Source: Escherichia coli
GTDB lineage: Bacteria > Pseudomonadota > Gammaproteobacteria > Enterobacterales > Enterobacteriaceae
DNA length: 64,000 nucleotides
Strand: one strand, 5' to 3'
Assembly: GCF_030013205.1 (NCBI RefSeq)
Contig: NZ_CP122648.1
Shown piece after piece: positions 5,463-28,138 of the stretch. Each line of letters starts with the position of its first letter. Within the stretch, counting starts at the first letter, position 1. The notes under the pieces are model-generated. The model saw nothing but the letters and a program-made list of their open reading frames with translations, had not been told where the DNA came from and ran no database searches. The position numbers were made by a program, and so were the translations under genes.

Positions 5463-6356
5463 CTATTTCCAGTTACAAGCAGCTTGAAGTGGTTTTAGCG
5501 CGTTTGACAGGCCGTTTAAATTGAAAGTTGCACTTACAGGGCTCTCATTATAAGGAGTTATTTTTGTATACATTTTGTTTGAGTTGGCTAGTTTTCGGAT
5601 GAAATCAATGTCATTACCTTTATAAAAAACAGCCTTTGTATCTGTAGATACTAGCCAGTTTCGCTCAACTGCTTTCTGTTTATCAAGACGATAAAGCATG
5701 CTGGTTTGTTCAAGGCCTAAATATACATCCCAACTAAGAAATACTTCGGTTTTCTTTTCTCGGCAAGCTATAAACAGAGTGGGAGTAACCGCTTCTCCAA
5801 ATGGAGTTCTGATATAATCATCACTTTCTAACGATAAAATTACATTTTTCGAATCATCAATTGGCGATGTAGTAATGGATGTGTGCCATTTTCCTACATC
5901 TGTGGCTTTCTCTAATTTTGATTCAGCTTGAACAGCTTTATCCTGTGGGAATAGTTTATCGTAGCAGTTTAGTCTGGCTTCTTTATCATTTTCTGCTCGG
6001 CATTTAGATATCTCAGAAAGATTTGGTTGCTGAGCCTCTGTTGTTACTGGCTTTTCCGTTTTAGATTTTGAGTTTACAGATGGAGTAAATGTTGGAGAAA
6101 AAAAACGATCATAACAAGATAAACGTCTGTCATCATCTTTCTCATCAGGGCATTGATCTCTGCTTTCGAATTTTTCAGCAACTTTCGTTCGAGTCGGTTG
6201 TATTGACTTATCGTAACAAGAAAGTCTGTCTTTATTATTTTCTATTGCTCGGCACTGGAGTACTGCATTGAAGTTATTATGTTCAGTTGCTGCGTGAACA
6301 GGCAGTACACTAATTGATATAAATGATGCACCTATAGAAAAAATTATATTTTTCAT
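5463..6356 (-). CDS. Secreted protein with three Cys-containing repeats (RLSCYDK-type) and a C-terminal domain of unknown function
   Basis: 297-aa ORF; N-terminal signal peptide (cleavage near VHA-AT); three ~40-aa repeats each with an R-L-(S/N)-C-Y-D-(K/R) motif; AT-rich, atypical composition; inside the prophage boundaries. Confidence 0.6.
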   Translation of the reverse strand: MKNIIFSIGASFISISVLPVHAATEHNNFNAVLQCRAIENNKDRLSCYDKSIQPTRTKVAEKFESRDQCPDEKDDDRRLSCYDRFFSPTFTPSVNSKSKTEKPVTTEAQQPNLSEISKCRAENDKEARLNCYDKLFPQDKAVQAESKLEKATDVGKWHTSITTSPIDDSKNVILSLESDDYIRTPFGEAVTPTLFIACREKKTEVFLSWDVYLGLEQTSMLYRLDKQKAVERNWLVSTDTKAVFYKGNDIDFIRKLANSNKMYTKITPYNESPVSATFNLNGLSNALKPLQAACNWK

Positions 6357-6360
6357 TTTG

Positions 6361-6702
6361 TTATCCTTTTGGTTTAGTAAGAAATACTAAAATTCCGATA
6401 ATGATATCGCCAATAACCCATAAACTTCCAATGGTAATTAAACCTAAGCCTGTACCAATAACTGCACCGGCTTTTTCGGCATCGGATGTAGCATTATTTA
6501 TTATTTCACTAGTGCCTCCCAGTCCAACTAAAAGCGTATAGATCATAAAAATATTAAATAATATAAATATCCACTTGATGAGCTTTCCAAAAAATGAACG
6601 CTTAAGTTTTTTTATTTGTTTACCGCAAGCAGGGCAATACAATGCTGAATCGCTCACCTCTTTCTGGCATTCAGGACATTTGATTAATGCCATGTAATCC
6701 AC
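6361..6702 (-). CDS. Small membrane protein with N-terminal zinc ribbon (CPEC...CPAC) and two predicted TM helices
   Basis: 113-aa ORF (real start may be the Met at 6690, MALIKCPECQ...); 4-bp gap to the downstream secreted-protein gene suggests an operon. Confidence 0.55.
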   Translation of the reverse strand: MDYMALIKCPECQKEVSDSALYCPACGKQIKKLKRSFFGKLIKWIFILFNIFMIYTLLVGLGGTSEIINNATSDAEKAGAVIGTGLGLITIGSLWVIGDIIIGILVFLTKPKG

Positions 6703-6954: not shown

Positions 6955-7095
6955 TTACTGCTTACACTGTAAGAACGCCGCAAACTCCGCTCCCCAGAAA
7001 CTCATCCGTATTTCGCACAGCGAACCGTGCAACATCCAGATGATGAGGATTACCGTCACGCAGAACGTGATGGCTGTAAGCGATTTTTGCGACAT
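6955..7095 (-). CDS. hok: Hok/Gef-family type I toxin (46 aa)
   Basis: Unlisted short ORF MSQKSLTAITFCVTVILIIWMLHGSLCEIRMSFWGAEFAAFLQCKQ: single TM helix followed by SLCEIR and E-F/V-AAF motifs typical of Hok/Gef; AAGGAG Shine-Dalgarno 9 nt upstream; structured flanks. Confidence 0.65.
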   Translation of the reverse strand: MSQKSLTAITFCVTVILIIWMLHGSLCEIRMSFWGAEFAAFLQCKQ

Positions 7096-7285
7096 AGCAC
7101 TTGCTCCTTTTCCGGAGAGGCGCTAACCTTTCACTTGCTTAGGGTAGACGGTTAGGGCCTCGGTTAAACAAAAGTGTTTTCCGGGGCCTTTCCACATCTG
7201 GCCTTCGGGTATTCCCTCCGACCATCAGCCGAAAGGCACCCGCGCGTAATCTATCGCTTTTTTGTTACTCCGGCAATTCTGCTTG

Positions 7286-7546
7286 TTAATTCTGAGGTAA
7301 AGGCAAACTCATCTGATTGTTTCCCCTGTGTGAAGCTGGTAGCTCATGCCACGGGATACCTTCTGAAGAGTGAACGCCGGAGGCGTGTTTCGATGTGAAT
7401 TTATGGAAAGCTTCCAGTGTTGAGAAGCATACGCCGCATTCCAGATTGTTACACTGGTAATACTTTTGCCGCACGGTGTTTGAATCATTTTCCGGACGAC
7501 TTGTGCGGATACGGGCAGATGCGCCACAAAGCGGACAACGGAACAT
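7286..7546 (-). CDS. ogr: Ogr/Delta-type zinc-finger late transcription activator
   Basis: 86-aa ORF MFRCPLCGASARIRTSR...YYQCNNLECGVCF, with the Cys-X2-Cys...Cys-X4-Cys pattern and N-terminal similarity to P2 Ogr. Confidence 0.85.
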   Translation of the reverse strand: MFRCPLCGASARIRTSRPENDSNTVRQKYYQCNNLECGVCFSTLEAFHKFTSKHASGVHSSEGIPWHELPASHRGNNQMSLPLPQN

Positions 7547-7630
7547 AGCGACCTCCCTTAACGTGGTGTTGCCGCTATTCTAGATTGTACGTTCCCTAAT
7601 TCCAACTAACAGCTCGCTCTGTGCGAAGAG

Positions 7631-7686
7631 TGAAAATTGAACTTTCAATAGTTGTTGAACTTTCATACATCCAATGTGAAAATTCA
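7631..7686. promoter_or_regulatory. Direct repeats (TTGAACTTTCA x2, TGAAAATT x2) upstream of the orphan cargo gene
   Basis: 11-bp exact repeat at 7637..7647 and 7655..7665, plus TGAAAATT at 7631 and 7677, in the AT-rich leader of the 7738 ORF. Confidence 0.35.
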
Positions 7687-7737
7687 TACGTTCATAATAG
7701 TTAAAATTTAAAATATTGTATATCAGGTGAATAAAGC

Positions 7738-8760
7738 ATGGGAAGAGATATAACGCTGTACCCTAAAAAAGCAACTAGAAACGAACTTAAAAATTACCTT
7801 GAAAATTTAGGTTTTAAAAGGTGTAAACATTTGTGGGAATGGCCCCAAGGAACGTTGAATTACTCTTGGTTTGATGATACGGACTTCAAATCTACAGATG
7901 GAGTTTCGGCTGATATATATCCTGTTTCAAATGACGAATTACACATATCTGGTAATAAATGGGCATTGCATGTGCGTAATTTATATAGCGCTAGTTGGCA
8001 TGATGTAAAAATGCTTAATGATGTTCTAAAAGGCGCAAGGAGTCTTTTTGGTGGAACACTTATAGGTGATTATGGGAAAAATAGGTACGCTCCTCTATGG
8101 AAGGATTCTAGTAGTCCGATCAGTCGTGGCATTTCTTCAATATTTAATCATGTCCATCATGAGATTTCCGCTGTTAAACATGCCTTACCTGAACCTTCTA
8201 TTAAATTAAACCTACCGGAAGATGGCGGCTTATCCGAATACTTTGATTACATGCAATGTATGGATCCCAGTAGAGTTATATATAATGGATTAGTACCTTT
8301 TGCGGTTGCTATGTTTGAATACTTTTTCTCTAGAGCTTTTCAAATACTTATAAAGTACGATCCTTTCGCAATAGCAAAAAGAACATCGTATAAGCAAAAA
8401 GTTGATTTTGATATTCTGCTTGAGATAGAGAAAGGAAATATTTCAATAGAAAGTGTTATTGCAAGAAATTACACTTTTCAAAACTTAACCCACCTAAACA
8501 AAGCATATAAAGAGTGGCTGGATATAGATGTGAGAGCGATTCTTTATAAGAAAAAAAGAATTGGAAAATCAGTTGATTTTCTTGAGAATCGAATTTCTGA
8601 AATCATACAATATAGACATGGGATAGTTCATCACTTTGAGTTGGATAGGACCTTAAATCGGGATGGATATATTCATATATTAGATGCGCTAGAAAAAAGC
8701 ATAATTGAATTTATCCATTACATAGAAGGCAAATACAAATTTAAATTAAATGCGTATTAA
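7738..8760 (+). CDS. Orphan AT-rich cargo gene; hypothetical protein with HEPN-like R-x4-H motif near the C-terminus (candidate abortive-infection/defence protein)
   Basis: 340-aa ORF on the strand opposite the flanking late genes D and ogr; low GC; strong start context; C-terminal ...YRHGIVHHFELDRT...; followed by a hairpin. Confidence 0.6.
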   Translation: MGRDITLYPKKATRNELKNYLENLGFKRCKHLWEWPQGTLNYSWFDDTDFKSTDGVSADIYPVSNDELHISGNKWALHVRNLYSASWHDVKMLNDVLKGARSLFGGTLIGDYGKNRYAPLWKDSSSPISRGISSIFNHVHHEISAVKHALPEPSIKLNLPEDGGLSEYFDYMQCMDPSRVIYNGLVPFAVAMFEYFFSRAFQILIKYDPFAIAKRTSYKQKVDFDILLEIEKGNISIESVIARNYTFQNLTHLNKAYKEWLDIDVRAILYKKKRIGKSVDFLENRISEIIQYRHGIVHHFELDRTLNRDGYIHILDALEKSIIEFIHYIEGKYKFKLNAY

Positions 8761-8788
8761 GCAATCAACCTTACATAGGGATGACAAA

Positions 8789-8826
8789 GTCCGCTTCTGA
8801 CACGGAGCGGACCGTCGTTTATGTTT
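8789..8826 (+). terminator. Putative intrinsic terminator after the orphan cargo gene
   Basis: gtccgc...gcggac stem followed by a T-rich tract (cgtcgtttatgttt). Confidence 0.4.
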
Positions 8827-8880
8827 AATTCTATACTGTAAACTTGCCAGTTTAAGTTTGAGCTAATATGTCTAAGTTGC

Positions 8881-9990
8881 TCACTCTGTTTCTGCTATCC
8901 ATTCCGGGATTTTTGCCTCAAGCTCAAGCTGTGTGGTAAAGCCGCTGTTATCAATGGTGTGCTCGGCTTTCGCAATAATCCAGTCCTGATTATCAATCTC
9001 GCTTTTAAATCCTGTTACCGTGCCATGCATTTCGGGGTAGAGTTCTGCACGTCCACGCACCAGCGTGATGGAAAACGATGCGGCTCCGCGTTGTAGCTGC
9101 TGCCACTTTGCCGCCGCTGCGCGTCTTGCTGCCTGCTCGTTCTGATAAGTCTTGCGTAACACAAACACATTGCCTTCCGCGCCTTCCATATAATCACCTT
9201 CACGGCTGCTGCTTTTCTCCTTTTTGGGTTTTGGCGGTTTGCGGCGTTTCACGCTGACTTTTTTCTTTTTCCCGTAATTAAGATCAAGCCAGTAAGCGCG
9301 TACCCCCGTATACGCCTCGCGGTCAGCAATGCGGAACTGATGGCGATCGCCGCTGCTGCGTGTGATGGCGAACGATGGCAACGGCTGGCCCTGTGCGTTC
9401 ACGCCACCGCCGGGCATGATGAATAACAGATTACCGCTTTTTACCGTGGTGATTGCGCCCAGCATTTCCGCCATGCGCGTAAGGAAGGACATGTCGCTTT
9501 CTTCAGTCTGGTCGGCGTGGTCGATTTCGATATCCATCAGCATTTCGCTGATTTGCGGTTTCAGGCCGTACCGATGAGCGATGGCGGATACCACACGTTC
9601 AACGGTCACATCATGCCAGGACGCCTCACGTTTAACATTAAATTCATCCCGAAAATCTGCGCTTCTGGCTGAAACAGTCAGCCTGTCCGGCGGTCCTTCG
9701 TGAGCGATTTCATCAATAATGTAAGTGCCTTTTTCTGTCAGCGGTTCCCCTTTCCAGCCAATGAGAACCGTCAGACGCGCGCCCCGTGGCGGTAGCTGCA
9801 ACTGGCCATCGGCATCATCCAGCGTGATGGTGAGCTGGTCCGCCTCAAATCCCCGGTTGTCGGTCAGTGACAGGCTCATCAGGCGTTCTGCCACGCCGGA
9901 CAGCGTTTTACCCTCGGCGAGAATATCAAAATCCGGCATTTTCACGGGGTCTGTGCCCTGACTGAGCAATTGCATGGTGGTGTCGGTCAT
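8881..9990 (-). CDS. P2 gpD-like tail protein (late control gene D family)
   Basis: ORF 8881..10122; likely true start is ATG at 9990, preceded by GGGAGGG (MTDTTMQLLSQGTDPVK...); Lys-rich central stretch and overall gpD-like size. Confidence 0.75.
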   Translation of the reverse strand: MTDTTMQLLSQGTDPVKMPDFDILAEGKTLSGVAERLMSLSLTDNRGFEADQLTITLDDADGQLQLPPRGARLTVLIGWKGEPLTEKGTYIIDEIAHEGPPDRLTVSARSADFRDEFNVKREASWHDVTVERVVSAIAHRYGLKPQISEMLMDIEIDHADQTEESDMSFLTRMAEMLGAITTVKSGNLLFIMPGGGVNAQGQPLPSFAITRSSGDRHQFRIADREAYTGVRAYWLDLNYGKKKKVSVKRRKPPKPKKEKSSSREGDYMEGAEGNVFVLRKTYQNEQAARRAAAAKWQQLQRGAASFSITLVRGRAELYPEMHGTVTGFKSEIDNQDWIIAKAEHTIDNSGFTTQLELEAKIPEWIAETE

Positions 9991-10147
9991 CTGTTCCCTC
10001 CCTGTGCGGCATGGTCGCATGTGCGTGCGGAGGGGGTTACTGCTTTTTGTTGTCGCCGTGGCGGGAGAATAGCGCAGGGGTGAGATTACGCGCGTGGTGG
10101 GTGATGATTGTTGCTGAATCATTTAACGGATACAAGGGGCTGAAGCT

Positions 10148-11332
10148 ATGAGTGAAACTCGTTTTCATGGTGCCCGTGTTACGGAAAATACCGACCTGGT
10201 AACAGCGATTAACGATGTTGATTCCAGCGTTATCGGTATCGTGGCAACGGCGGATGATGCGGACGCGAAGCTGTTCCCGCTGAACAAGCCCACATTGCTG
10301 ACCCGCGTCAATGACGTGCTGGGAAAATGCGGAACAACGGGGACGCTTTATCGTGCGCTTAAGGCCATCGCAGACCAGGTGAGCACAAAGGTGATCGTCG
10401 TTCGCGTGGCTGAACACAAAGAAGAAGACGGAAAGACGCAGGATCAACTGGTTATCGGTGGTTCTGAGGATGACGGCAGCTATACGGGGATGTATGCGCT
10501 GCTTGTTGCAGAGCAGGATGAAAGCATCGGATACCGTCCGCGTATTCTGGCCGCGCCGGAGCTGGACACGGAGGCTGTAACAAAATCCCTGTGCGTGATT
10601 GCAGGTAAACTGCGCGCGTTTGTGTATGCCTCATGTCACGGCTGTAACACGATGGCTGAGGCGATTACCTACCGCCAGAAATTCAACGAACGTGAGGTGA
10701 TGCTCTTATGGCCGGACTTCATCGCCTACAACCCGAAAAGTGGCAAAAACGAAACGTTCCCCGCGCCTGCCTATGCGTGCGGCCTTCGTGCGTACATTGA
10801 CCATGAGCAGGGCTGGCACAAATCGCTGTCCAACGTTCCGGTTAAAAATGTGCTGGGGATGTCCAGGCATGTGTTCTGGTCGTTGCAGGCCGAAGACAGT
10901 GATGCCAACAGCCTCAACAACAAAGAAATCACGACCATTATTCGTCGCAACGGGTTCCGCTTCTGGGGCAACCGCACACCGGAAACGAACGCCTACATCT
11001 TTGAGGTGTATACCCGAACCGCACAGGTGCTGGCTGATTCAATTGCGGAAGCGCAGTTTGAAACCATCGACAGTCCACTGACGCCTGCGAACGTGAAAGA
11101 TGTTATCAGTGCCATCAGGGCAAAACTGGATTCACTGGTTACTGCCGGGAAACTGATTGGGGCGTCGTGCTGGTATGACGTGGTGGATAACGGCACCACG
11201 AATTTACGTCAGGGGCGCGTGCGTATTCGCTACAAATATACGCCTGTTCCCCCGCTGGAAGACATGGAGCTTTACCAGTCGTTTACTGATGAATTCTTTG
11301 GTCCCGCATTTGCGGTGCTGGGAGGTGCCTGA
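10148..11332 (+). CDS. Contractile tail sheath protein (P2 gpFI-like)
   Basis: 394 aa; aligns by eye with P2 FI (FPLNKP, CxKLRAF, IRRxGFRFWGNRT, YxYTPVPPLE motifs). Confidence 0.9.
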   Translation: MSETRFHGARVTENTDLVTAINDVDSSVIGIVATADDADAKLFPLNKPTLLTRVNDVLGKCGTTGTLYRALKAIADQVSTKVIVVRVAEHKEEDGKTQDQLVIGGSEDDGSYTGMYALLVAEQDESIGYRPRILAAPELDTEAVTKSLCVIAGKLRAFVYASCHGCNTMAEAITYRQKFNEREVMLLWPDFIAYNPKSGKNETFPAPAYACGLRAYIDHEQGWHKSLSNVPVKNVLGMSRHVFWSLQAEDSDANSLNNKEITTIIRRNGFRFWGNRTPETNAYIFEVYTRTAQVLADSIAEAQFETIDSPLTPANVKDVISAIRAKLDSLVTAGKLIGASCWYDVVDNGTTNLRQGRVRIRYKYTPVPPLEDMELYQSFTDEFFGPAFAVLGGA

Positions 11333-11844
11333 TGGCTGTACCAAAACATCTTCGCTTTTTTACGCTGTTTGTGGATGGTGAAAACGAAGTGGGTAAGGTG
11401 ACGTCCGTCACTCTGCCTAAGCTGACGCGCAAAACCGACAGCTACCGGGGTGGTGGCATGATGGGTGCGGTAAGTATTGATCTCGGTCTGGACGACTCCG
11501 CGCTTGATGCGAGCTTTGTCATGGGGGGCGCAGTTCGTGAGCTGTTCCTTAAGTATGGCGGCACGATTGACGGCACGCTGCTGCGTTTTGCGGGTGAATA
11601 CTACACCGATGCAGAAAGCGACCTGTATGAAGTCGAAATGCGCGGACGTGTGACGGAAATTGATATGGGGGAAGCCAAACAGGGCGAAGCCACATCACAC
11701 ACTTACGCCATTAAAAACACCTACTACAAGCTGAGTGTTAACGATCGCCCGTTGTGGGAGATTGACCTGCTGAACTTCATTTACCGGAAGGACGGCAAGG
11801 ACATTGTGCCCGATCGCATCCGTTCCGCGCTCGGGCTTGGCTGA
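11332..11844 (+). CDS. Tail tube protein (P2 gpFII-like)
   Basis: 170 aa, immediately after the sheath gene with overlapping stop/start (ATGA). Confidence 0.85.
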   Translation: MAVPKHLRFFTLFVDGENEVGKVTSVTLPKLTRKTDSYRGGGMMGAVSIDLGLDDSALDASFVMGGAVRELFLKYGGTIDGTLLRFAGEYYTDAESDLYEVEMRGRVTEIDMGEAKQGEATSHTYAIKNTYYKLSVNDRPLWEIDLLNFIYRKDGKDIVPDRIRSALGLG

Positions 11845-11899
11845 TAAGTAATATGCAGGCGGCGCAGTGCGTCGCCTCTGACTGAAAAGGAGACAACTG

Positions 11900-12274
11900 A
11901 TGAAAGACATCGATACTGAAACCCGGAATAACACCGTGGCGGATGATGTGACGGCAGGTGAGGATATGGCTGTCGAACATGGCGTAAAACTGACCCGACC
12001 AATTGAGCGTGGTGGCGAAAAAATCACGTATGTGGAGATCACCGGGGCTATTGAACAGGCTGGATCCCTGCGTGGTCTGTCGCTGTCTGATGTGCTGAAT
12101 CTGAAAGCGGATACCATGTTCACGCTGTTGCCTCGCGTGACCTCGCCACGACTGGATGAAGTGATGATTAAAAAAATGTCGTCACGCGATTTTATTCAGT
12201 TGTGCGCTGTGGCTGTAAATTTTATGAGCGAGCCAGACTCTGGCGCGAAGAGCGTGCAGGAGACGGCAGCGTAA
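11900..12274 (+). CDS. Tail assembly chaperone (P2 gpE-like)
   Basis: 124-aa ORF between tube and tape-measure genes, with an overlapping -1 frame ORF (E'). Confidence 0.75.
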   Translation: MKDIDTETRNNTVADDVTAGEDMAVEHGVKLTRPIERGGEKITYVEITGAIEQAGSLRGLSLSDVLNLKADTMFTLLPRVTSPRLDEVMIKKMSSRDFIQLCAVAVNFMSEPDSGAKSVQETAA

Positions 12275-12438
12275 TCACCCTGGTGTGCTTTGAGCACATC
12301 GAAGATCTGGTGGCAGATATCGCCGCCATTTTTAACTGGTCGCCCGCCGAAATCTTCATGATGACGCCCGGCGAAGTGGTTAGCTGGCGTGAGCGGGCGG
12401 CACTTCGCAGCGGGAATGCAGACAATGAAGACTCTTGA
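12202..12438 (+). CDS. E' extension, -1 frame of the tail chaperone (predicted E+E' frameshift product)
   Basis: ORF in the -1 frame overlapping the 3' end of E; candidate slippery heptamer A-AAT-TTT at 12217..12223 in the E frame. Confidence 0.5.
   Translation: MRCGCKFYERARLWREERAGDGSVITLVCFEHIEDLVADIAAIFNWSPAEIFMMTPGEVVSWRERAALRSGNADNEDS
12217..12223 (+). promoter_or_regulatory. Candidate programmed -1 ribosomal frameshift site (AAATTTT)
   Basis: XXXYYYZ heptamer inside the E/E' overlap, in the correct phase for E to E' slippage. Confidence 0.4.
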
Positions 12439-15232
12439 CATCCGGGTCGCTTTCAGCGCCGTTGACAGGCTGACCCGGCCTGCCGAAAACGCCCGCCGCC
12501 TGATGGGGCAGTTTGGTGACTCCATCCAGCGAACGCAGGGGGCGATCAAAAATCTCGAGCGTCAGGCGCGTTCATTTGAGCGCGCCCGTGACGCTGTCAG
12601 TAAAGCGGATGCTGGCATATTGAAAGCACGACGCCAGCTTAACGCCCTTAATCAGTTACAACGCACGGGTACAGTGCTCAGCGAAAAACAACAAAAGCTG
12701 ATGCAGCAGTTAAGCACCCGGCTTGAACGCCTGAATGAATCGCGCACACGGGAAATTCAGAAAATGCGGGAGCTTGGCGGAGAGCTGAAACGCCACGGCA
12801 TTTCCCTGACAGGCAGCGATAACACCATCCAGCAGGCCATCAGACGCACCGAACAGTACAACAACCAGCTTGAACGCGAACGGCAGGCGCTTGCGCGTGT
12901 AACACGGGCGCGTGAGCGGTATTCGCGCGCGCAGGAAACAGCGGGAAAACTGAAAACAGGTGGTGCGCTGGCAATTGGTGCGGCAACGGCGGGCGGCTAT
13001 GCTGCCGGGCGTTTTTTGCAGCCTGCGATCGGGTTCGGCAAAGAGATGTCCCGCGTTCAGGCACTGACGCGAATCGACAAAAACAGCCCGCAGTTTAAGG
13101 CGCTGCGTGAGCAGGCGTTAAAACTTGGCTCTGAAACACAGTTTACTGCGAGTGATGCCGCCAGTGGGCAGAGCTTTCTGGCAATGGCTGGTTTTACTCC
13201 GCAGGCCATTCAGGCCGCATTGCCCGGTGTTCTTAATATGGCGCTGGCAGGTGGCGTCGAACTCGGCGAGACGGCTGATATAGGCTCCAATATCCTCACA
13301 CAGTTCAACCTGACAGCCGATCAAATGGACCGTGTTGGCGATACGCTGACAGCAGCATTCACCCGGACCAATACTGATTTACGCGCGCTGGGCGAAACCA
13401 TGAAGTATACCGGTCCGGTTGCCGCAAAACTTGGTATCAGTCTTGAAGAAGCGGCGGCCATGGCCGGGATGCTTGCCAATAATGGTCTTCGCGGAAGCGA
13501 TGCTGGTACGGCCATGCGCGCAAGTCTGTCCCGCCTTGCATCACCGCCAAAAGCTGCGGCTGATGCACTGAAAGAGCTGGGGGTGTCAGTTGCTGACGCC
13601 AGAGGCAAAATGCGCCCGATGGAGGATGTGCTGCTTGATCTCTATAAGGCGACACAAAAATACGGACAGGTGGACCAGGTTTCCTTCTTCAAGGACATCG
13701 CCGGAGAAGAGGCGTTCGTTGGTTTGCAGACGCTTGTTGCGGCGGCTGGTTCAGGAGAGCTGCAAAAACTGACCAGAGAATTGCAGGGGGCAAGGGGAGA
13801 GGCCGATCGCGTCGCAAAAGTAATGGCCGATAATCTTGATGGGGACCTGAAAAATCTCGACAGCGCATGGGAAGGTCTTCGTATTCGCATCAGTGATCTG
13901 GTTGACGGTCCGCTGCGTTCTGTCACGCAGTGGCTCACGCGGGTGCTTGAAAAAATCACCTCGCTGGCGCAGGCCCATCCGGTACTGACGCGCCAGCTAC
14001 TGATAGCAGGCGGTGCGTTGCTGGCAATGACTGCAACGATTGGCTCGTTGTCGCTGGTTATTGGGGTGCTTTACGGGAAGCTGGCCACCCTGCGTCTTGG
14101 TTTTGACATTCTTACCCGGTCAATGAATGTCGTCAGGGTGTTGCCTGCGCTGTGGGGAATGGTGACGGGTTCCGTTTCTTTACTGGGAGGCGCCATCGGG
14201 GCGTTGTTCAGTCCGGTTGGTCTTATCGTGGCTGCGCTTGCCGGAGCTGCCGTTCTTATCTGGAAATACTGGGATCCCATCAGGGCATTTTTTGCCGGGG
14301 TGTTCAGCGGGATTATGGAAAGGCTGACCCCGTTGCGCGAAACCTTTGAACGGTTTGGTCCTGTTTTTGACACAATCGGAAGCGGGATCAGCCAGGTGTT
14401 TAACTGGTTTAAATCGCTGCTGTCACCGATGGAGTCCAGCAAGGAAACGCTGGATAAATGTACCAGTGCTGGCGAGATATTCGGTAACGTTCTTGGCGGT
14501 GCGTTACAGCTTGTTCTGACACCTGCAAAAATGCTACTGGATACGCTGGCGTGGATACTTGAAAAACTTGGCGTCCTTCCGGATGAAGCGGAAAGGGCGC
14601 GCAAGAAAATCGAAGACGCACAGCGTGCGGCCATTCTTCAGGACAAGGTTGTCTTGCTTCAGGGTGACCTGGCGAAAATCAATCCGCCGAAGCCTGTGGA
14701 AAATGGCAATGGCACCGGAGGTAATAAACCCAAAGACAACAAACCGCTCACAGACAGCAATACCGGGACGCTACGCAGACTCAGCAAAATTGCTGATAAC
14801 ACAGGTAAGCTGGTTGATGAGACGAAAAAACGCATTGGCCCCGGCGATATTGTCTTTAAGAACCTGCCCCGCGCACTTGCTGTTCGTGGAGAGTGGCAGG
14901 AGCGGAAGATTGCGCAGGTCAGTAAGCCTGCCCCCGCAATTAATATCACACCCGTGGTCCCGGCTCCGCTGCCTCCGGCGCTGGTCCCTGTTGTTGCGGC
15001 CAGCTCCCGCCCGGTGGCGGAGGCCATACGATCTCCAGTGGCATCAGTTCCTGTAACTTCCCGTAACCGGGAGCCTGTTGCCTCCGGATTTGGTGGTGAA
15101 ATTCATGTTCATCTGCATAACGTTGTTACGCAGAATCCCCGCGAACTGGCGAAACTGGTCGGTGAAATGGTCAGGGCAGAAATGGAACGGCGCGCCCGTG
15201 CCGGGCGTGGCAGTTTTTACGATAAAGATTGA
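12389..15232 (+). CDS. Tail tape measure protein (P2 gpT-like)
   Basis: 947 aa, long coiled-coil-rich N-terminus and C-terminal hydrophobic segments, position after E/E'; true start probably a downstream Met (12416 or 12425). Confidence 0.85.
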   Translation: MSGRHFAAGMQTMKTLDIRVAFSAVDRLTRPAENARRLMGQFGDSIQRTQGAIKNLERQARSFERARDAVSKADAGILKARRQLNALNQLQRTGTVLSEKQQKLMQQLSTRLERLNESRTREIQKMRELGGELKRHGISLTGSDNTIQQAIRRTEQYNNQLERERQALARVTRARERYSRAQETAGKLKTGGALAIGAATAGGYAAGRFLQPAIGFGKEMSRVQALTRIDKNSPQFKALREQALKLGSETQFTASDAASGQSFLAMAGFTPQAIQAALPGVLNMALAGGVELGETADIGSNILTQFNLTADQMDRVGDTLTAAFTRTNTDLRALGETMKYTGPVAAKLGISLEEAAAMAGMLANNGLRGSDAGTAMRASLSRLASPPKAAADALKELGVSVADARGKMRPMEDVLLDLYKATQKYGQVDQVSFFKDIAGEEAFVGLQTLVAAAGSGELQKLTRELQGARGEADRVAKVMADNLDGDLKNLDSAWEGLRIRISDLVDGPLRSVTQWLTRVLEKITSLAQAHPVLTRQLLIAGGALLAMTATIGSLSLVIGVLYGKLATLRLGFDILTRSMNVVRVLPALWGMVTGSVSLLGGAIGALFSPVGLIVAALAGAAVLIWKYWDPIRAFFAGVFSGIMERLTPLRETFERFGPVFDTIGSGISQVFNWFKSLLSPMESSKETLDKCTSAGEIFGNVLGGALQLVLTPAKMLLDTLAWILEKLGVLPDEAERARKKIEDAQRAAILQDKVVLLQGDLAKINPPKPVENGNGTGGNKPKDNKPLTDSNTGTLRRLSKIADNTGKLVDETKKRIGPGDIVFKNLPRALAVRGEWQERKIAQVSKPAPAINITPVVPAPLPPALVPVVAASSRPVAEAIRSPVASVPVTSRNREPVASGFGGEIHVHLHNVVTQNPRELAKLVGEMVRAEMERRARAGRGSFYDKD

Positions 15233-15238
15233 GGAGTC

Positions 15239-15733
15239 ATGGCCATGATGATGATCTACGGCATGTTTGTTTTTGAGCTGCGCACGCTGCCGCATCAGCA
15301 GTTACAGCAAAACAAAAGCTGGCGGCATGTGAAAAATGAACGCGTTAACCGTTCAGCAAGCTGGCAGTATATCGGTGCAGGTGATGATCGCATCGTTCTT
15401 TCTGGTGTGCTTTATCCTGAAATTACAGGTGGCGAAGTGTCGCTGTCGCTGCTGACCACGCAGGCGTATACAGGACGCCCCTGGCCTCTTATTGATGGCG
15501 TCGGGCAGATTTACGGCATGTATGTCCTGACCGAAACGAATACGACCCGTTCCGAGTTTGATCGCTACGGTAAGGCGAAAAAGATAGAATTTTCACTGAC
15601 CCTTGAACGCTGTGATGAGGATTTGCGGGAGCGCCTGCAATCCTCATCGTTCAGCGATATGCTGTCCGGCTTCAAAGATAAAGTGACATCATCCCTTAAC
15701 AGCGCGGCCAGTTCAGTTAAAGGGCTGTTCTGA
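15239..15733 (+). CDS. Tail protein (P2 gpU-like)
   Basis: 164 aa MAMMMIYGMFVFELRTLPHQ...; N-terminal similarity to P2 U; directly follows the tape measure gene. Confidence 0.75.
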   Translation: MAMMMIYGMFVFELRTLPHQQLQQNKSWRHVKNERVNRSASWQYIGAGDDRIVLSGVLYPEITGGEVSLSLLTTQAYTGRPWPLIDGVGQIYGMYVLTETNTTRSEFDRYGKAKKIEFSLTLERCDEDLRERLQSSSFSDMLSGFKDKVTSSLNSAASSVKGLF

Positions 15734-15903
15734 TTTAATGCTGGCCACTCATACCCTCATACCTGGTAATAAGTGGCCAGTCTTAACACTCACCATTTGA
15801 TTGCACCAGTGTTAACGATTTGTTACTGGACATCAGGCACGCTGGATAGCCAGTAGAAACATACCATTAAAATTATTACAATAATTGGTCACATGATTAT
15901 CTT

Positions 15904-16467
15904 ATGCTGAATAATAGAGATATGAATATTAATGAACTTAAAGATTGTATTCACTATGAAGTAATCGGTAGCGAGCGTCCTTTCTCCTGGCGAAAGGCAA
16001 TTGTTCGCGCAATAAAACATAGAAGAGTTCGTTATTTATTTTGGTGGCGCATAGCCAAATACCTTTTTGATAAAGGCGGATACTGTCGGAAGATTGCGGG
16101 GAAAATAGAACGTTTCATTCTTGATAAATATAATGTAACAGTCCCTTTAACTGTAAATATAGGGAAAGGCTTTGATATTTCTTATCTCAACAGTGTTGTT
16201 ATCGGTCACAAAGTAACAATCGGTGAAAATTGTTCAATAAAACCAGGGGTAACTATTGGGCTGCGTGGTGATTTTAATGATATGGATATTGTTATAGGAC
16301 ATAATGTGACCATTGGTTGTAATGCCACCATTCTTGGTGGCAAAGTGCGTATAGGAAACAATGTCACAATAGGTGCTCATGCATTGGTATTGCATGATAT
16401 TCCAGATGATTCAACATTCATCACTAAATTTCAGTCTGAAGTTATCTGCTCGTCCTCCCGCACATAA
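15904..16467 (+). CDS. Hexapeptide-repeat (left-handed beta-helix) acyl/acetyltransferase, cargo at the Z/fun position
   Basis: 187 aa with tandem [LIV]-G-x-x-x-x hexapeptide repeats ([22 protein letters not shown]...[16 protein letters not shown]...); AT-rich; convergent with and overlapping the 3' end of the tail-fibre assembly gene. Confidence 0.7.
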
Positions 16468-17048
16468 CCCTGATTCATCAGCTCTGGCCATACGATATCC
16501 GGAGCTGTACTGGTGTCAATTCTACTCACTAATACTCTGTATTTTCTCCAGGAATCCAGTTGTGAATTTTCCTCGTTTGTTGCTATTTCAAGATTAACTG
16601 CATCCTGCAGAATTGCGATGTTATCTGTTGCTTCCTGGATCAACCTTGCCTTTTTCTCTTCCGCTTCCCGTATCCGAAACAGTTTTTCTGCTTCCTCATC
16701 CTTCACCCAGGATACGCCGTCCCACTTCTGATACTCCCCTGCTGGCGACAACCAGGTGACATTCTCTGGTAGCGGTCCGGGTTCAGAAATAAACAACGCG
16801 TCCCCCGATGCCACGTCATAGACCGTTTTACCACGATGGTCTTCAACAATATTCCACGATTCATTTTCACTGTTAAAAACTGCCACAAAGCCAGCAGGAA
16901 TTTCCGGTGGGGCGATATCTGTAGAATTGGCTGGCAGCCCTGTATGAGGTGGAATATATGCGTCACCTTCACCAATAAACTCATTAGTTCCGGCCAGCAG
17001 GTTATAAATTTTTACAGTACGTGATTGTTCACTCATTCTGAATGCCAT
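16431..17048 (-). CDS. Tail fibre assembly protein (P2 gpG / Tfa family)
   Basis: 205 aa; typical Tfa N-terminal region; start overlaps the stop of the upstream tail-fibre fragment (TAATG). Confidence 0.8.
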
Positions 17049-17395
17049 TATGCAAGCCTCACAATATAATTAAATGCGATGTTTTTAACGGTGTTTTCCG
17101 CGTTACCAGCAGCGTTAACGGTGATGGTGTGTCCATGTGAACCAATCGCAACAGAGTGCGTATGAGCGCCAATAGCTGATTGAGTGTGACGCCATACGCC
17201 CCACGGACCATCAGTGCCATTCCACTTATTGGCGAGTTTACGCATGTATACATTGCCGTCTCTCGTGATAAAACGTTGCGTGCCTGCAAAATTGCCAGCT
17301 GCAAAAACCTCAAGCACACCGACAGCATTATCTTCCGGGAAATTTTTCTCCAGTGTTGCGTTGGTGGATGTTGCTTTAGACCAGATGCCAGTGCA
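17048..17395 (-). pseudogene. Tail fibre gene (H-like), 3' fragment only
   Basis: Open frame from the stop at 17396..17398 to 17048 encodes ...[40 protein letters not shown], a typical tail-fibre C-terminus; no N-terminal part; fused out of frame to the truncated capsid gene. Confidence 0.7.
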
Positions 17396-18033
17396 TCAGC
17401 GTTCGCATACTTACCCGCGTGCGCCACGGTGTTGTCCATGTTACGGGAGGTCAGCGTCACGTCATTCATAACGCGTTCGCTGGCGTCGGTTCTGATGTGC
17501 TCCAGCCACCCCACGTTAACGTCCTGAAGCAACTTGTTGGTGCTGAAGTTGGACTCATCCGCGTGAGACGTGCCGTTGAAACCGATCATGATTCGGTCAA
17601 GCGCCACCTGTCGGGCAATCTGTGCGCTGATGCGGGACTGAAAATCGCTGTGTGCCGACCAGGCATCAAGCTGCGGATACGAAATAAACGTGTCGTAGTT
17701 CACCTGTTCGCACTGGTATTTGCGGTTTTTCAGATCAACCACGTTATTCGGGTTACGGCGTTTTGTTCCGTCATAACTGGTATTCGTGCGCGCAATCGGT
17801 CCTGTGGTATCCAGGAGGATTTTTTCGCCCTTCTGGTCGGTCACGCCGATCACGTTAATTCTTTTTGTAAATTCGGTGCTTTCCTTTGAGGCGTTTTCAA
17901 AACGCTGCTGTACCGAGGGTTCCACGGTAAATCGCGATACCAGTGCGGAAACCGGGATATTGTTAAGCGACGCCTGCTGCGCCATATAGCAACCCAGCTT
18001 GTTGCGGGTAATATCTGACATCACCAGATTCAT
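17381..18033 (-). pseudogene. Major capsid protein gene (P2 gpN-like), truncated after ~217 codons
   Basis: N-terminal 217 aa align with P2 N (FTVEPSV, GEKI, KYxCxQ, IMxGFNG, LQDVxVGWL, RVM); after ADALAS the frame runs into tail-fibre DNA and yields low-complexity sequence. Confidence 0.75.
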
Positions 18034-22966: not shown

Positions 22967-23278
22967 TTACTCAGGAAATAACGCCCGGATATTCCCAGCC
23001 ATCTGGCTGGTTATCTTAGCCACTGGTGCAGACTGTGCTTCAAACTTTTTTGAGCTGATTTGTGTCACAGGTAACATCTCATCATCAGCCCATGCGGCCA
23101 GTCGGTAAGCCTCTGCCGGATTCGTCTTCAGAAGTGCCAGCCCGGCCAGAAAAGCCACGCGTTGGCCGCTTTTGCGGGCTTCTGGTGTAAGGCTGTCCAG
23201 CCAGGCGCATGCTTCTCCTTCGTTCTTGACGGCAGCTGGCTTCAGATAGAAACTTATCCGTCTGGTTGGTGTTGTCAT
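22967..23278 (-). CDS. parR: ParR-like centromere-binding adaptor
   Basis: 103 aa from the ATG at 23278, preceded by AGGAG 7 nt upstream and only 4 nt after the parM stop; resembles R1 ParR (RRISFYLKP...LDSLTPEARKSGQRVAFLAGLALL). The longer annotated ORF 22967..23413 overlaps parM and is rejected. Confidence 0.7.
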   Translation of the reverse strand: MTTPTRRISFYLKPAAVKNEGEACAWLDSLTPEARKSGQRVAFLAGLALLKTNPAEAYRLAAWADDEMLPVTQISSKKFEAQSAPVAKITSQMAGNIRALFPE

Positions 23279-23282
23279 TGGT

Positions 23283-24242
23283 TTACTCCTTGTCCATTGC
23301 GTACAGCCCATTAACCAGAGCAAACTGTGGCACCCCGTCCGCGATGAAAGTCGCATTAACTCCGCAGGCTTCGCGGATAGCGGGTGCCACAATCTCCGCC
23401 CCGCCACCGACAACCATCACCCGCCCGTAACCCGAAAAACCCGCCAGCGCGCGGATCACGCGTTGTTTCAGTGTTTCTTCCTTTTCACGAATAACCGCCA
23501 TCAGGCTGGCGTAATGCGCGTCATTGTGGATGTGCTGGCGCAGCCAGGCTTCATCATGGCGATGTTCGATAATGGTATTGGCGATGTGGTGACTGGTACG
23601 CATACCGTTAGTGGCCATCACCGACAGTACGGCATCGGCCATCAGGGAAACGCCTACGTGTGGATCGCAAAACACCTGGCTGATACCTGCCAGTTGTCCC
23701 TGAACCTTTGCCACATCCAGCGTGGTTCCGCCTAAATCCACAATCAGCAGGGATTCAAACGGACTCATGTCAGCCAGTGCTTTAAAGCCAGCCGGAATGG
23801 ATTCAGGCATAACCCGTACGTTACGGATAGTGAATGCTTCGCCGTTCTGGTACTCCACCGGGCGCATGACGTTCGCTTTTTTGCGGTTGATGTTGGCCAT
23901 GTCCGGCTGTGCGTTTGTGTCGAAATATTCGCTCAGTGGCAGGGTGACAACCACATCCACTTCCTGTGGTGTGATGCCTGATTTGACCAGCGCGTGATGA
24001 ATGGCAATGACATTCACATCGCTGTACTGGTATTGCGTGTCGGTCGTCTGGACAAAGCGATCGCTGACCGGATCAAAACCATAGCGCACGCCATCAAGCA
24101 TGTAGTTCGCGGGCTGCGTGCCACCGAACGGCGCAGACCATTCCGACTTGAAGCTGTTCGGGCTGATGGCGTTGCGGCGTTCGCCGTTCTCAGTCCATGC
24201 CAGCTTGATGTTGGTGGAGCCGTCATCGATACAAATTTTCAT
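23283..24242 (-). CDS. parM: ParM/StbA-family actin-like segregation ATPase
   Basis: 319 aa MKICIDDGSTNIKLAW...SPNSF...VMPESIPAG...LIVDLGGTTLD...VMVVGGGAE; close to plasmid R1 ParM along the whole length. Confidence 0.85.
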   Translation of the reverse strand: MKICIDDGSTNIKLAWTENGERRNAISPNSFKSEWSAPFGGTQPANYMLDGVRYGFDPVSDRFVQTTDTQYQYSDVNVIAIHHALVKSGITPQEVDVVVTLPLSEYFDTNAQPDMANINRKKANVMRPVEYQNGEAFTIRNVRVMPESIPAGFKALADMSPFESLLIVDLGGTTLDVAKVQGQLAGISQVFCDPHVGVSLMADAVLSVMATNGMRTSHHIANTIIEHRHDEAWLRQHIHNDAHYASLMAVIREKEETLKQRVIRALAGFSGYGRVMVVGGGAEIVAPAIREACGVNATFIADGVPQFALVNGLYAMDKE

Positions 24243-27816: not shown

Positions 27817-28138
27817 GGTGTGGCCCCTTGTGTAGTAAGTTGTGAAAACTCACCATCCAGAGCTGCGAAACTGTGGGTGGCGAGACGTACGAGGTTCGCA
27901 GTACCGGCTACACAAGAACCCGGCCCGACCGAAGTCGGCCCCGTACGCCCCGCCATAATTCTGACGCGAAAAAAACGTGGCAATACAGTACGCACAAAAA
28001 AACCGCTGGCGCGGTTGTGCGCTTGTGTAGTCAGCAGGCTGCGAAACCCGGCACCCGTTTTGTGAGGTGCAGCGGAAATGTAACCTGACTGATTGCGGCA
28101 TGGCAAGCGGTTTTTTTGTGTGTGCATGTTCTGGTTTC

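Follow-up and report, generated by a model that had tools for sequence, protein, structure and literature searches.

Why does a P2-like prophage of Escherichia coli carry a single AT-rich gene between its tail gene D and its late activator gene ogr, on the strand opposite to both, and what might the encoded protein do? We examined this question in a 64,000-nucleotide stretch of contig NZ_CP122648.1 (assembly GCF_030013205.1), which we refer to as the window. The gene is acquired cargo of the prophage, and its product has a well-supported C-terminal HEPN domain. With moderate confidence, we propose that this protein is an infection-activated sensor-HEPN ribonuclease (RNase) that would act as a stand-alone abortive-infection defense, a reading that draws on analogy and location. 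The locus is organized as follows (aa, amino acids; GC, guanine-plus-cytosine fraction; ORF, open reading frame).

7286 to 7546, minus strand: ogr, late transcription activator, backbone flank, labeled "ogr/Delta-like zinc finger family protein" in identical genomes
7583 to 8866, unstranded: inserted cargo cassette, about 1.28 kb, GC 0.34, delimited by a BLAST comparison between window 7250-9400 and locus L015, which has the empty site
7738 to 8760, plus strand: coding sequence of the 340-aa two-domain protein, stop included, from the ORF list, with an MGRD N terminus
8881 to 10122, minus strand: gpD-like tail protein, backbone flank, labeled tail protein or phage late control D family

An initial annotation of this DNA had described a 340-aa ORF opposite to the late genes, lower in GC than the phage backbone, and had interpreted it as acquired cargo extending from 7560 to 8830. 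The orientation was as described, with the ORF on the plus strand between ogr and gpD on the minus strand, and so was the composition, with a GC of 0.337 for the ORF and 0.341 for the insert versus 0.543 for D and 0.483 for ogr. An insert does lie at the proposed position, but its bounds are slightly wider, at about 7583 to 8866; similarity to L015 stopped at 7582 and restarted at 8867. To survey the site, we searched with 2.15 kb of sequence covering ogr, the ORF, and the terminal part of D, which matched 1,204 E. coli records. The ORF was present in 64 of these, and in most rows of a 40-row spread sample, D and ogr were 42 bp apart as in L015, with the flanks joined in about 858 bp. Because 42 bp separates D from ogr in most related E. 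coli prophages, the single AT-rich gene between them is acquired cargo, as the initial annotation had concluded. Among 5,426 complete E. coli genomes, the gene occurred in 64 (about 1.2%), always at the D-ogr locus.

The prophage, which is of the Gemsvirus type (Peduoviridae), occupies the flk/pdxB interval of the E. coli chromosome and is 100% identical to copies in pig enterotoxigenic E. coli (ETEC) strains, such as ETEC4067. Among phage records, Escherichia phage 500465-2 (Peduoviridae, Gemsvirus) is closest and carries the cargo gene at 99.7% aa identity under the label "hypothetical protein."

To assign the protein, we combined an AlphaFold2 (AF2) monomer model built on 31 homologues (mean pLDDT [predicted local distance difference test], 85.8; predicted template modeling score, 0.79) with profile searches and a 61-sequence alignment. 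The model contained an alpha/beta domain (aa 1 to 125), a long helix (aa 127 to 149), and an all-helical domain (aa 166 to 333), from which we delineated the following regions.

7738 to 8112, plus strand: N-terminal alpha/beta domain, aa 1-125, proposed sensor/regulatory domain, with conserved G55, D89, N94, F104-G105-G106, G113, and Y117
8233 to 8736, plus strand: C-terminal all-helical HEPN domain, aa 166-333, RiboL-PSP-HEPN type
8614 to 8631, plus strand: catalytic-type HEPN motif R293-H-G-I-V-H298 (Rx4H), read from the sequence

Several lines of evidence converge on the C-terminal domain. Its core is an all-alpha, up-down helical bundle as in the HEPN superfamily, and its motif has the Rx4-6H form with a polar residue (H294) after the arginine. 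The single Pfam match of the protein was PF18735 (HEPN_RiboL-PSP), covering aa 181 to 329 and model positions 29 to 189 of 191, and 34 of the 61 relatives matched this family on their own at ≤1e-3 (best, 4.3e-10). Most close homologues also carry precomputed PF18735 hits. D89, E194, F247, R293, and H298 were invariant in the 61-sequence alignment, which reaches down to about 20% identity, and G55, N94, F104, G105, G106, G113, N183, Q248, and H294 were at least 90% conserved. The R-x4-H motif that the initial annotation had placed in a helical C-terminal region is thus borne out by invariance, by the PF18735 match, and by the all-helical AF2 domain, and assignment of this domain to HEPN of the RiboL-PSP type is well supported. 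The Rx4H site is intact, and RNase activity is predicted. The N-terminal domain has a fold resembling the ZipA C-terminal and KA1 domains.

The suggestion that the protein may be undescribed proved partly right. The HEPN domain family was named computationally in 2013 (PMC3710099) and is in Pfam, and several sensor-HEPN systems are already known, but the function of the two-domain family and its N-terminal domain are undescribed. Unusual features are the very high cross-phylum conservation and a previously unlisted P2 cargo slot.

We then examined how the gene might be expressed and whether the cassette encodes anything else. The start of the coding sequence is secure, since M1-G2-R3-D4 is invariant in 31 homologues, and the following elements surround the gene.

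7637 to 7686, plus strand: promoter-region repeats, TTGAACTTTCA in two copies (7637-7647 and 7655-7665) and the palindrome TGAANNTTCA in three copies (starting at 7638, 7656, and 7677)
7655 to 7683, plus strand: likely sigma-70 promoter, -35 TTGAAC (7655-7660), 17-nt spacer, extended -10 TGtGAAAAT (7675-7683), read from the sequence
7725 to 7730, plus strand: Shine-Dalgarno-like AGGTGA, 7 nt before the ATG, read from the sequence
8789 to 8822, plus strand: intrinsic-terminator-like hairpin and T-rich tail, the hairpin at 8789-8812 with a 9-bp stem and 6 GC pairs

The candidate promoter scored 8/12, under the promoter-scan threshold. A TTGAAY...AATGT(G/A)A(A/G)(A/G)AT block was kept upstream of 81 to 83% identical homologues in two unrelated phage contexts (contig L026 and the Pantoea locus L008), in which the surrounding DNA was not conserved. 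The gene therefore likely has its own sigma-70 promoter that travels with it, with a predicted start site near 7690. The terminator hairpin had a folding energy of -26.5 kcal/mol (z, -4.69), and 0 of 200 shuffles folded as well. These elements agree with the initial annotation of single-gene cargo with its own promoter and terminator, the promoter being a prediction. The "repeat-containing leader" in that annotation survived only in part. The repeat TTGAACTTTCA is real and present twice, but because its second copy contains the likely -35 hexamer, the repeats belong to the promoter and not to a transcribed leader. The three copies of the 10-bp palindrome TGAANNTTCA are its only occurrences in the window, and the repeats were not conserved upstream of homologues in other genera. 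They may represent a promoter-region duplication or possibly an operator rather than leader RNA.

The gene is clearly distributed as a mobile accessory, being found in several phage accessory slots, in an integrative island, and in variable islets. Copies in Shewanella and Aeromonas lie in small variable islets among housekeeping genes. The Pseudomonas copy (L007) lies in an integrase-AlpA-DUF927 island beside a UvrD-type helicase pair and directly downstream of an MvaT/H-NS-like gene, a position that suggests that xenogeneic silencing may control the gene there. In Pantoea (L008), the gene is in a lambdoid prophage, downstream of a lambda-P-type replication gene and about 6 kb from a SIR2 gene that matches the PADLOC candidate PDC-S25. 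The copy in the IMG/VR contig L026 is in a P2-like tail-fiber region, and that in the IMG/VR contig L025 is beside umuDC-like and tail-fiber genes. Metagenome copies were solitary or beside an HNH gene near smpB. Across these approximately 15 contexts, from which four distant members were left out due to contigs that were too short, we detected no recurring neighbor or partner gene.

The lack of a second component within or around the cassette bears directly on a different explanation, in which the gene is an addiction or toxin module whose HEPN toxin is countered by an unlinked, RNA-based, or intramolecular antidote and which mainly stabilizes the prophage or island. We consider this explanation unlikely. 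No other supported ORF of at least 20 aa was found on either strand of the cassette, no Rfam match was obtained in 7500 to 8900 at E ≤ 1, and the upstream 121 nt folded no better than shuffles (z, -0.8), with a transcribed leader that is probably only about 50 nt. The cassette is thus a stand-alone one, in which no second gene, antitoxin, or structured RNA was found. Furthermore, no partner gene is conserved across contexts, and the gene is often a solitary one flanked by housekeeping genes, a setting with no element to stabilize.

To place our preferred reading, an infection-activated RNase, among characterized systems, we compared the protein with known HEPN defenses. A computational study listed Ribo L-PSP-HEPN among the Rx4-6H families and described it as bacterial, active, and a distant relative of AbiD/AbiF (Anantharaman et al. 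2013, Biol Direct 8:15, PMC3710099). The cargo protein resembles this family in that its C-terminal domain matches the Pfam model with a conserved Rx4H motif, but it has no L-PSP endoRNase fusion and no ParB neighbor and instead carries its own subfamily-specific N-terminal alpha/beta domain. PD-T4-2_B, part of the validated two-gene PD-T4-2 system, bears the same PF18735 label; the PADLOC model for PD-T4-2_B was silent for the cargo protein even at E ≤ 1, and the cassette has no second gene.

The best functional analogy is with HepS of the Gifsy-1 prophage of Salmonella, which is inactive by default, is switched on by a phage tail-tip protein, and cuts tRNA anticodon loops (Nature 2026, PMC13043305). 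Both are prophage-encoded single genes in an accessory-gene slot, with an Rx4-6H motif and no partner or antitoxin. The cargo protein is not a member of this family, as HepS homologues are HEPN-only proteins of <250 aa with the motif at R100/H105 (STM14_3211), whereas the cargo protein is 340 aa with an extra domain and a motif at 293 to 298. Tha-1 and Tha-2 of Staphylococcus aureus prophages, abortive-infection RNases activated by tail proteins (Nat Microbiol 2024, PMC11087260), are similar in being prophage cargo of 301 aa with an uncharacterized N-terminal half and a C-terminal HEPN domain (R265-x4-H270). In contrast to the cargo protein, Tha-1 has weak DUF4145 and HepT-like matches and not PF18735, and Tha phages carry a cognate inhibitor, Ith, for which no equivalent was identified here; hhalign of the 61-sequence alignment against 80alpha Tha-1 (gp03) was not significant.

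ApeA is an approximately 580-aa protein with N-terminal, Mid, and split-HEPN regions that forms decamers or dodecamers, is activated by deoxydinucleotides, and cuts tRNA (Gao et al. 2020; bioRxiv 10.64898/2026.01.26.701840). It is likewise a single-protein HEPN abortive-infection system, in which the non-HEPN N-terminal domains form a ligand pocket, and two structural neighbors of the cargo protein in AFDB (template modeling [TM] scores of 0.71 to 0.76) carry ApeA-type InterPro labels. The cargo protein is 340 aa with two domains, and the PADLOC ApeA models missed both it and 10 relatives. DARNA/PD-T7-3, in which an N-terminal HEPN domain (R117x4H122) precedes a C-terminal single-stranded-DNA (ssDNA)-binding domain, is activated by ssDNA and cuts tRNA; the domain order is reversed in the cargo protein, and no PADLOC PD-T7-3 hit was obtained. 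Resemblance to RnlA/LsoA (RNase LS, a type II toxin-antitoxin system) was at the fold level only, with no significant hhalign result against E. coli RnlA and no supported small neighboring ORF. Membership in the type III or AbiF-like RNA-antitoxin systems is also improbable, given the missing Rfam match, the unremarkable upstream fold, and repeats that coincide with the promoter and lack conservation in other genera, with a small chance left for a novel small RNA. Against the family profile, hhalign gave no significant alignment for the HEPN protein of the two-gene "GNAT" system from DefensePredictor. The cargo protein thus resembles characterized HEPN defenses in outline, but by sequence and architecture it belongs to none of ApeA, HepS, DARNA, Tha, RnlA, and PD-T4-2.

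Broader searches gave a similar picture. No NCBIfam model matched the protein, PHROGs returned phrog_10554 at E 0.086 only, and the BFVD viral structure library had no match at E ≤ 0.001. Searches of PDB with the single sequence or the profile gave no meaningful sequence match at E ≤ 10, the one chance hit being an epoxide hydrolase (E 1.6). In the part of the DefensePredictor supplementary files that was searchable, there was no trace of the accessions, N-terminal peptide, or internal motifs of the protein or of the N termini of four alternative D-ogr cargos.

From the architecture of the protein and these parallels, we infer expression in lysogeny, RNase activity, a defense role, a trigger, an RNA target, and auto-inhibition, which might be connected as follows. 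Transcription of the gene would start at its own sigma-70 promoter and run antisense to the late genes D and ogr, and because of this promoter and orientation it would probably be expressed in the lysogen independently of late transcription. The product, with its family-specific N-terminal alpha/beta domain and C-terminal HEPN domain, would probably be held inactive in uninfected cells, as proposed by analogy with the characterized single-protein HEPN defenses ApeA, DARNA/PD-T7-3, HepS, and Tha. An infection cue would then probably switch the protein on through its N-terminal domain or its oligomeric state. The activated protein would cleave cellular RNA, either tRNA anticodon loops or mRNA, halting translation and aborting the incoming phage; this would protect the lysogen population and the prophage.

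Several observations weigh against this model. PADLOC, which the initial annotation had named as a check, gave no hit for the cargo protein, and 10 diverse relatives yielded one marginal match only, to a 2TM effector model (E 0.0013). We found no published experimental work or defense phenotype for the family in searchable papers and supplements. The PF18735 match of the cargo protein itself was modest (independent E value, 3.7e-4), and the loop containing the catalytic residues (aa 292 to 300) had low pLDDT in the monomer model. Searches with the N-terminal domain returned fragments of the same family only and no case of its attachment to other effectors; because of this, its sensor role is assigned by analogy. 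A protein from Maribacter (Bacteroidota) is 66% identical to the cargo protein, which is unusually conserved for a defense gene. Finally, neighbors were mostly housekeeping or unknown genes, and only one context had a nearby PADLOC candidate. In a small sample of 10 neighbors from 6 loci, PADLOC identified one strong candidate (PDC-S25) and three weak, sub-threshold ones (UvrD-type helicase and HNH), with nothing for the rest. Because neighbors were mostly housekeeping or unknown genes, classical defense-island support is weak.

The D-ogr site itself provided another view of the gene. In the loci that we compared (L011-L015), the slot was either empty (42 bp) or held a single gene, of which at least five unrelated kinds occur, on either strand, and all of the inserts had a GC of 0.33 to 0.37. 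Besides the HEPN gene, the occupants were as follows.

minus strand: 356-aa PIN-domain protein
plus strand: 389-aa DUF3800 protein
minus strand: 221-aa protein with an N-terminal hydrophobic segment
plus strand: 384-aa protein without annotation

In the 5,426 complete genomes, the DUF3800 gene was counted 36 times and the PIN gene 16 times. None of the five cargos had a PADLOC or NCBIfam match. The boundaries of the HEPN cassette contained the following elements.

7577 to 7605, minus strand: promoter-like site for ogr, -35 TTGGAA (7605-7600) and -10 TAGAAT (7582-7577), 9/12 matches, 17-nt spacer
7579 to 7587, unstranded: left direct-repeat copy TCTAGATTG (about 9 bp) bracketing the cassette, from comparison of cassettes with the empty site
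8871 to 8879, unstranded: right direct-repeat copy TCTAAGTTG, 1 nt from the D stop codon (8881-8883)

The empty site contained one repeat copy only, TCTAAGTT. The other four cassettes had a TYTAAGTTG-like sequence at the left, on the ogr side, and the right-hand copy was also present in the PIN, DUF3800, and 221-aa alleles; the D-proximal end was diverged in the 384-aa allele. The ogr-proximal ends of all five cassettes were alike over about 35 bp that included TTCCAAC, a block absent from the empty site, and most cassettes also had about 20 bp in common at the D-proximal end. The -35 element of the ogr promoter-like site lies inside the cassette end and the -10 element at the junction, and the empty allele had no comparable -35 element at that spacing from the ogr -10. 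These cassettes may therefore carry, or preserve, a portable ogr promoter element, which would keep ogr expressed with D moved 1.3 kb away.

Known cargo hotspots of P2-like phages are old/tin between gpA and the portal gene and Z/fun in the tail genes (Rousset et al. 2022, PMC9122126; bioRxiv 10.64898/2026.02.27.708500). The D-ogr slot is like these in lying between two core genes and in receiving alternative AT-rich, often single-gene cassettes, but these two reports do not list the D-ogr junction as a hotspot and contain no mention of "ogr" or "gpD."

The host prophage showed signs of decay. At approximately 17048 to 18033 of the window (from L029 coordinates), tail-fiber gene fragments, a truncated major capsid gene of the P2 type, and a "pyocin knob" domain abut one another. 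Because these fragments abut, the baseplate, lysis, and head-completion genes of phage 500465-2 are missing from the window prophage, which is defective and no longer makes virions but has kept the HEPN cargo gene intact. Position 10148 is the start of the sheath gene FI, on the plus strand. As a separate feature of this backbone, the FI-FII-E-E'-T-U block (window 8881-17000) is on the strand opposite to D and ogr, with the start of D divergent from FI and about 26 to 160 bp away, whereas the canonical P2 order is a co-linear FI...U-D-ogr.

The position of the gene raises the question of whether it serves the phage's own cycle or host takeover, either as an RNase acting on host or competitor RNA in lytic growth or as a modulator of D and ogr expression. 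The gene does lie within the late region and antisense to D and ogr, such that its transcription could hinder read-through into ogr, and the -35 element of the ogr promoter is on the cassette end. We nonetheless regard a role in the phage's own cycle as quite improbable. The gene is dispensable, since most close phage relatives have no gene at the site, and the protein is not confined to phages, as it also occurs in chromosomal islets and in an integrative island. Its promoter is of the sigma-70 type, with no Ogr-type TGT-N12-ACA dyad seen upstream by eye (no formal scan was made), and the gene persists in a prophage unable to make virions.

We also analyzed the family to which the protein belongs. 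A word-indexed search returned 295 relatives, of which the best 120 were all about 340 aa and 64 to 87% identical, from Pantoea, Proteus, Shewanella, Aeromonas, Pseudomonas, Methylococcaceae, and Halochromatium. An exhaustive search gave 284 cluster representatives, many of them full-length at 20 to 44% identity, and Foldseek against AFDB50 found full-length matches (TM scores of 0.7 to 0.9) in Bacteroidota, Firmicutes, and Leptospira. The ratio of nonsynonymous to synonymous substitution rates (dN/dS) was 0.07 to 0.08 against three homologues of 81 to 83% identity, with dS above 1 and synonymous sites near saturation. The GC of the homologous gene was 0.34 to 0.40 in the high-GC hosts Aeromonas and Pseudomonas and 0.48 in Halochromatium; AT-rich homologues within high-GC genomes were read at L003, L004, L007, and L009 (GC of 0.37 to 0.40, and 0.48 in Halochromatium), with the gene at approximately 10001 to 11023 in each. 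By these comparisons, the gene behaves as one that is strongly constrained and repeatedly transferred, under strong purifying selection. Among the distant members, one of 44% identity (L017 349-1380, on a 2.2-kb contig) is in a tight three-gene array, with start and stop codons overlapping or abutting both neighbors. Because of this arrangement, distant members may have partner genes.

The very high cross-phylum conservation, the low dN/dS, and the several copies among metabolic genes could point to a protein of RNA metabolism or stress without a defense role, such as a housekeeping-like RNase or RNA binder carried on mobile elements by chance, but this is very unlikely given its patchy, strain-specific occurrence (1.2% of E. 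coli genomes), a foreign AT-rich composition kept in every host, its linkage to phages and islands, and the lack of an NCBIfam model or conserved operon.

Returning to the defense reading, we tentatively extend it to a joint interpretation of protein, family, and site, which we hold as a speculative possibility. The 340-aa family might constitute a new, widespread class of single-protein immune sensors, in which the ZipA/KA1-like domain (D89, N94, FGG, and GxNRY) would recognize a conserved cue of phage origin (protein, nucleic acid, or small molecule) other than those to which ApeA, HepS, Tha, and DARNA respond. The cross-phylum conservation would then reflect a universal trigger and target, and the D-ogr junction would be an unrecognized P2 defense hotspot where cassettes are exchanged with a portable ogr promoter between 9-bp direct repeats.

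If the protein does act in defense, a compact one-gene immune protein with a new sensor domain would join the prophage-borne HEPN abortive-infection set, with carriers among ETEC from pigs and humans and among further E. coli lineages. The D-ogr junction would then be a further cargo slot of P2-like phages, and its PIN, DUF3800, and two unknown occupants would become defense candidates as well. If it does not, the locus is a clean example of P2-like phages swapping single-gene cassettes with ogr expression kept. Across phyla, the family is far better conserved than most defense proteins; its trigger and RNA target are for that reason appealing subjects of study, and they might transfer broadly.

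Other parts of the prophage and its border also carry accessory elements. A 46-aa Hok/Gef-family toxin gene (6955-7095, minus strand) marks the prophage end, immediately downstream of ogr, and was present in all related prophages examined; a window-wide scan gave no antisense RNA family near it at the Rfam gathering threshold. Between flk and the prophage end is a two-gene AT-rich islet (5463-6702, minus strand; GC of about 0.35) encoding a 297-aa secreted protein labeled "type VI secretion system-associated protein TagO" and a 113-aa zinc-ribbon membrane protein. The prophage early region contains a C4 antisense RNA (83 bits) and an isrK Hfq-binding small RNA (64 bits), both above the Rfam gathering score.

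27873 to 27960 and 27996 to 28070, minus strand: C4 antisense RNA and isrK small RNA matches, respectively, from Rfam

Finally, two genes, one for ParM-type plasmid segregation and one for partitioning/stability, are located at approximately 22967 to 24242 (minus strand) in the classical gpA/portal cargo hotspot, where such segregation and partitioning genes are found in about one-quarter of P2-like phages (Rousset et al. 2022, PMC9122126).

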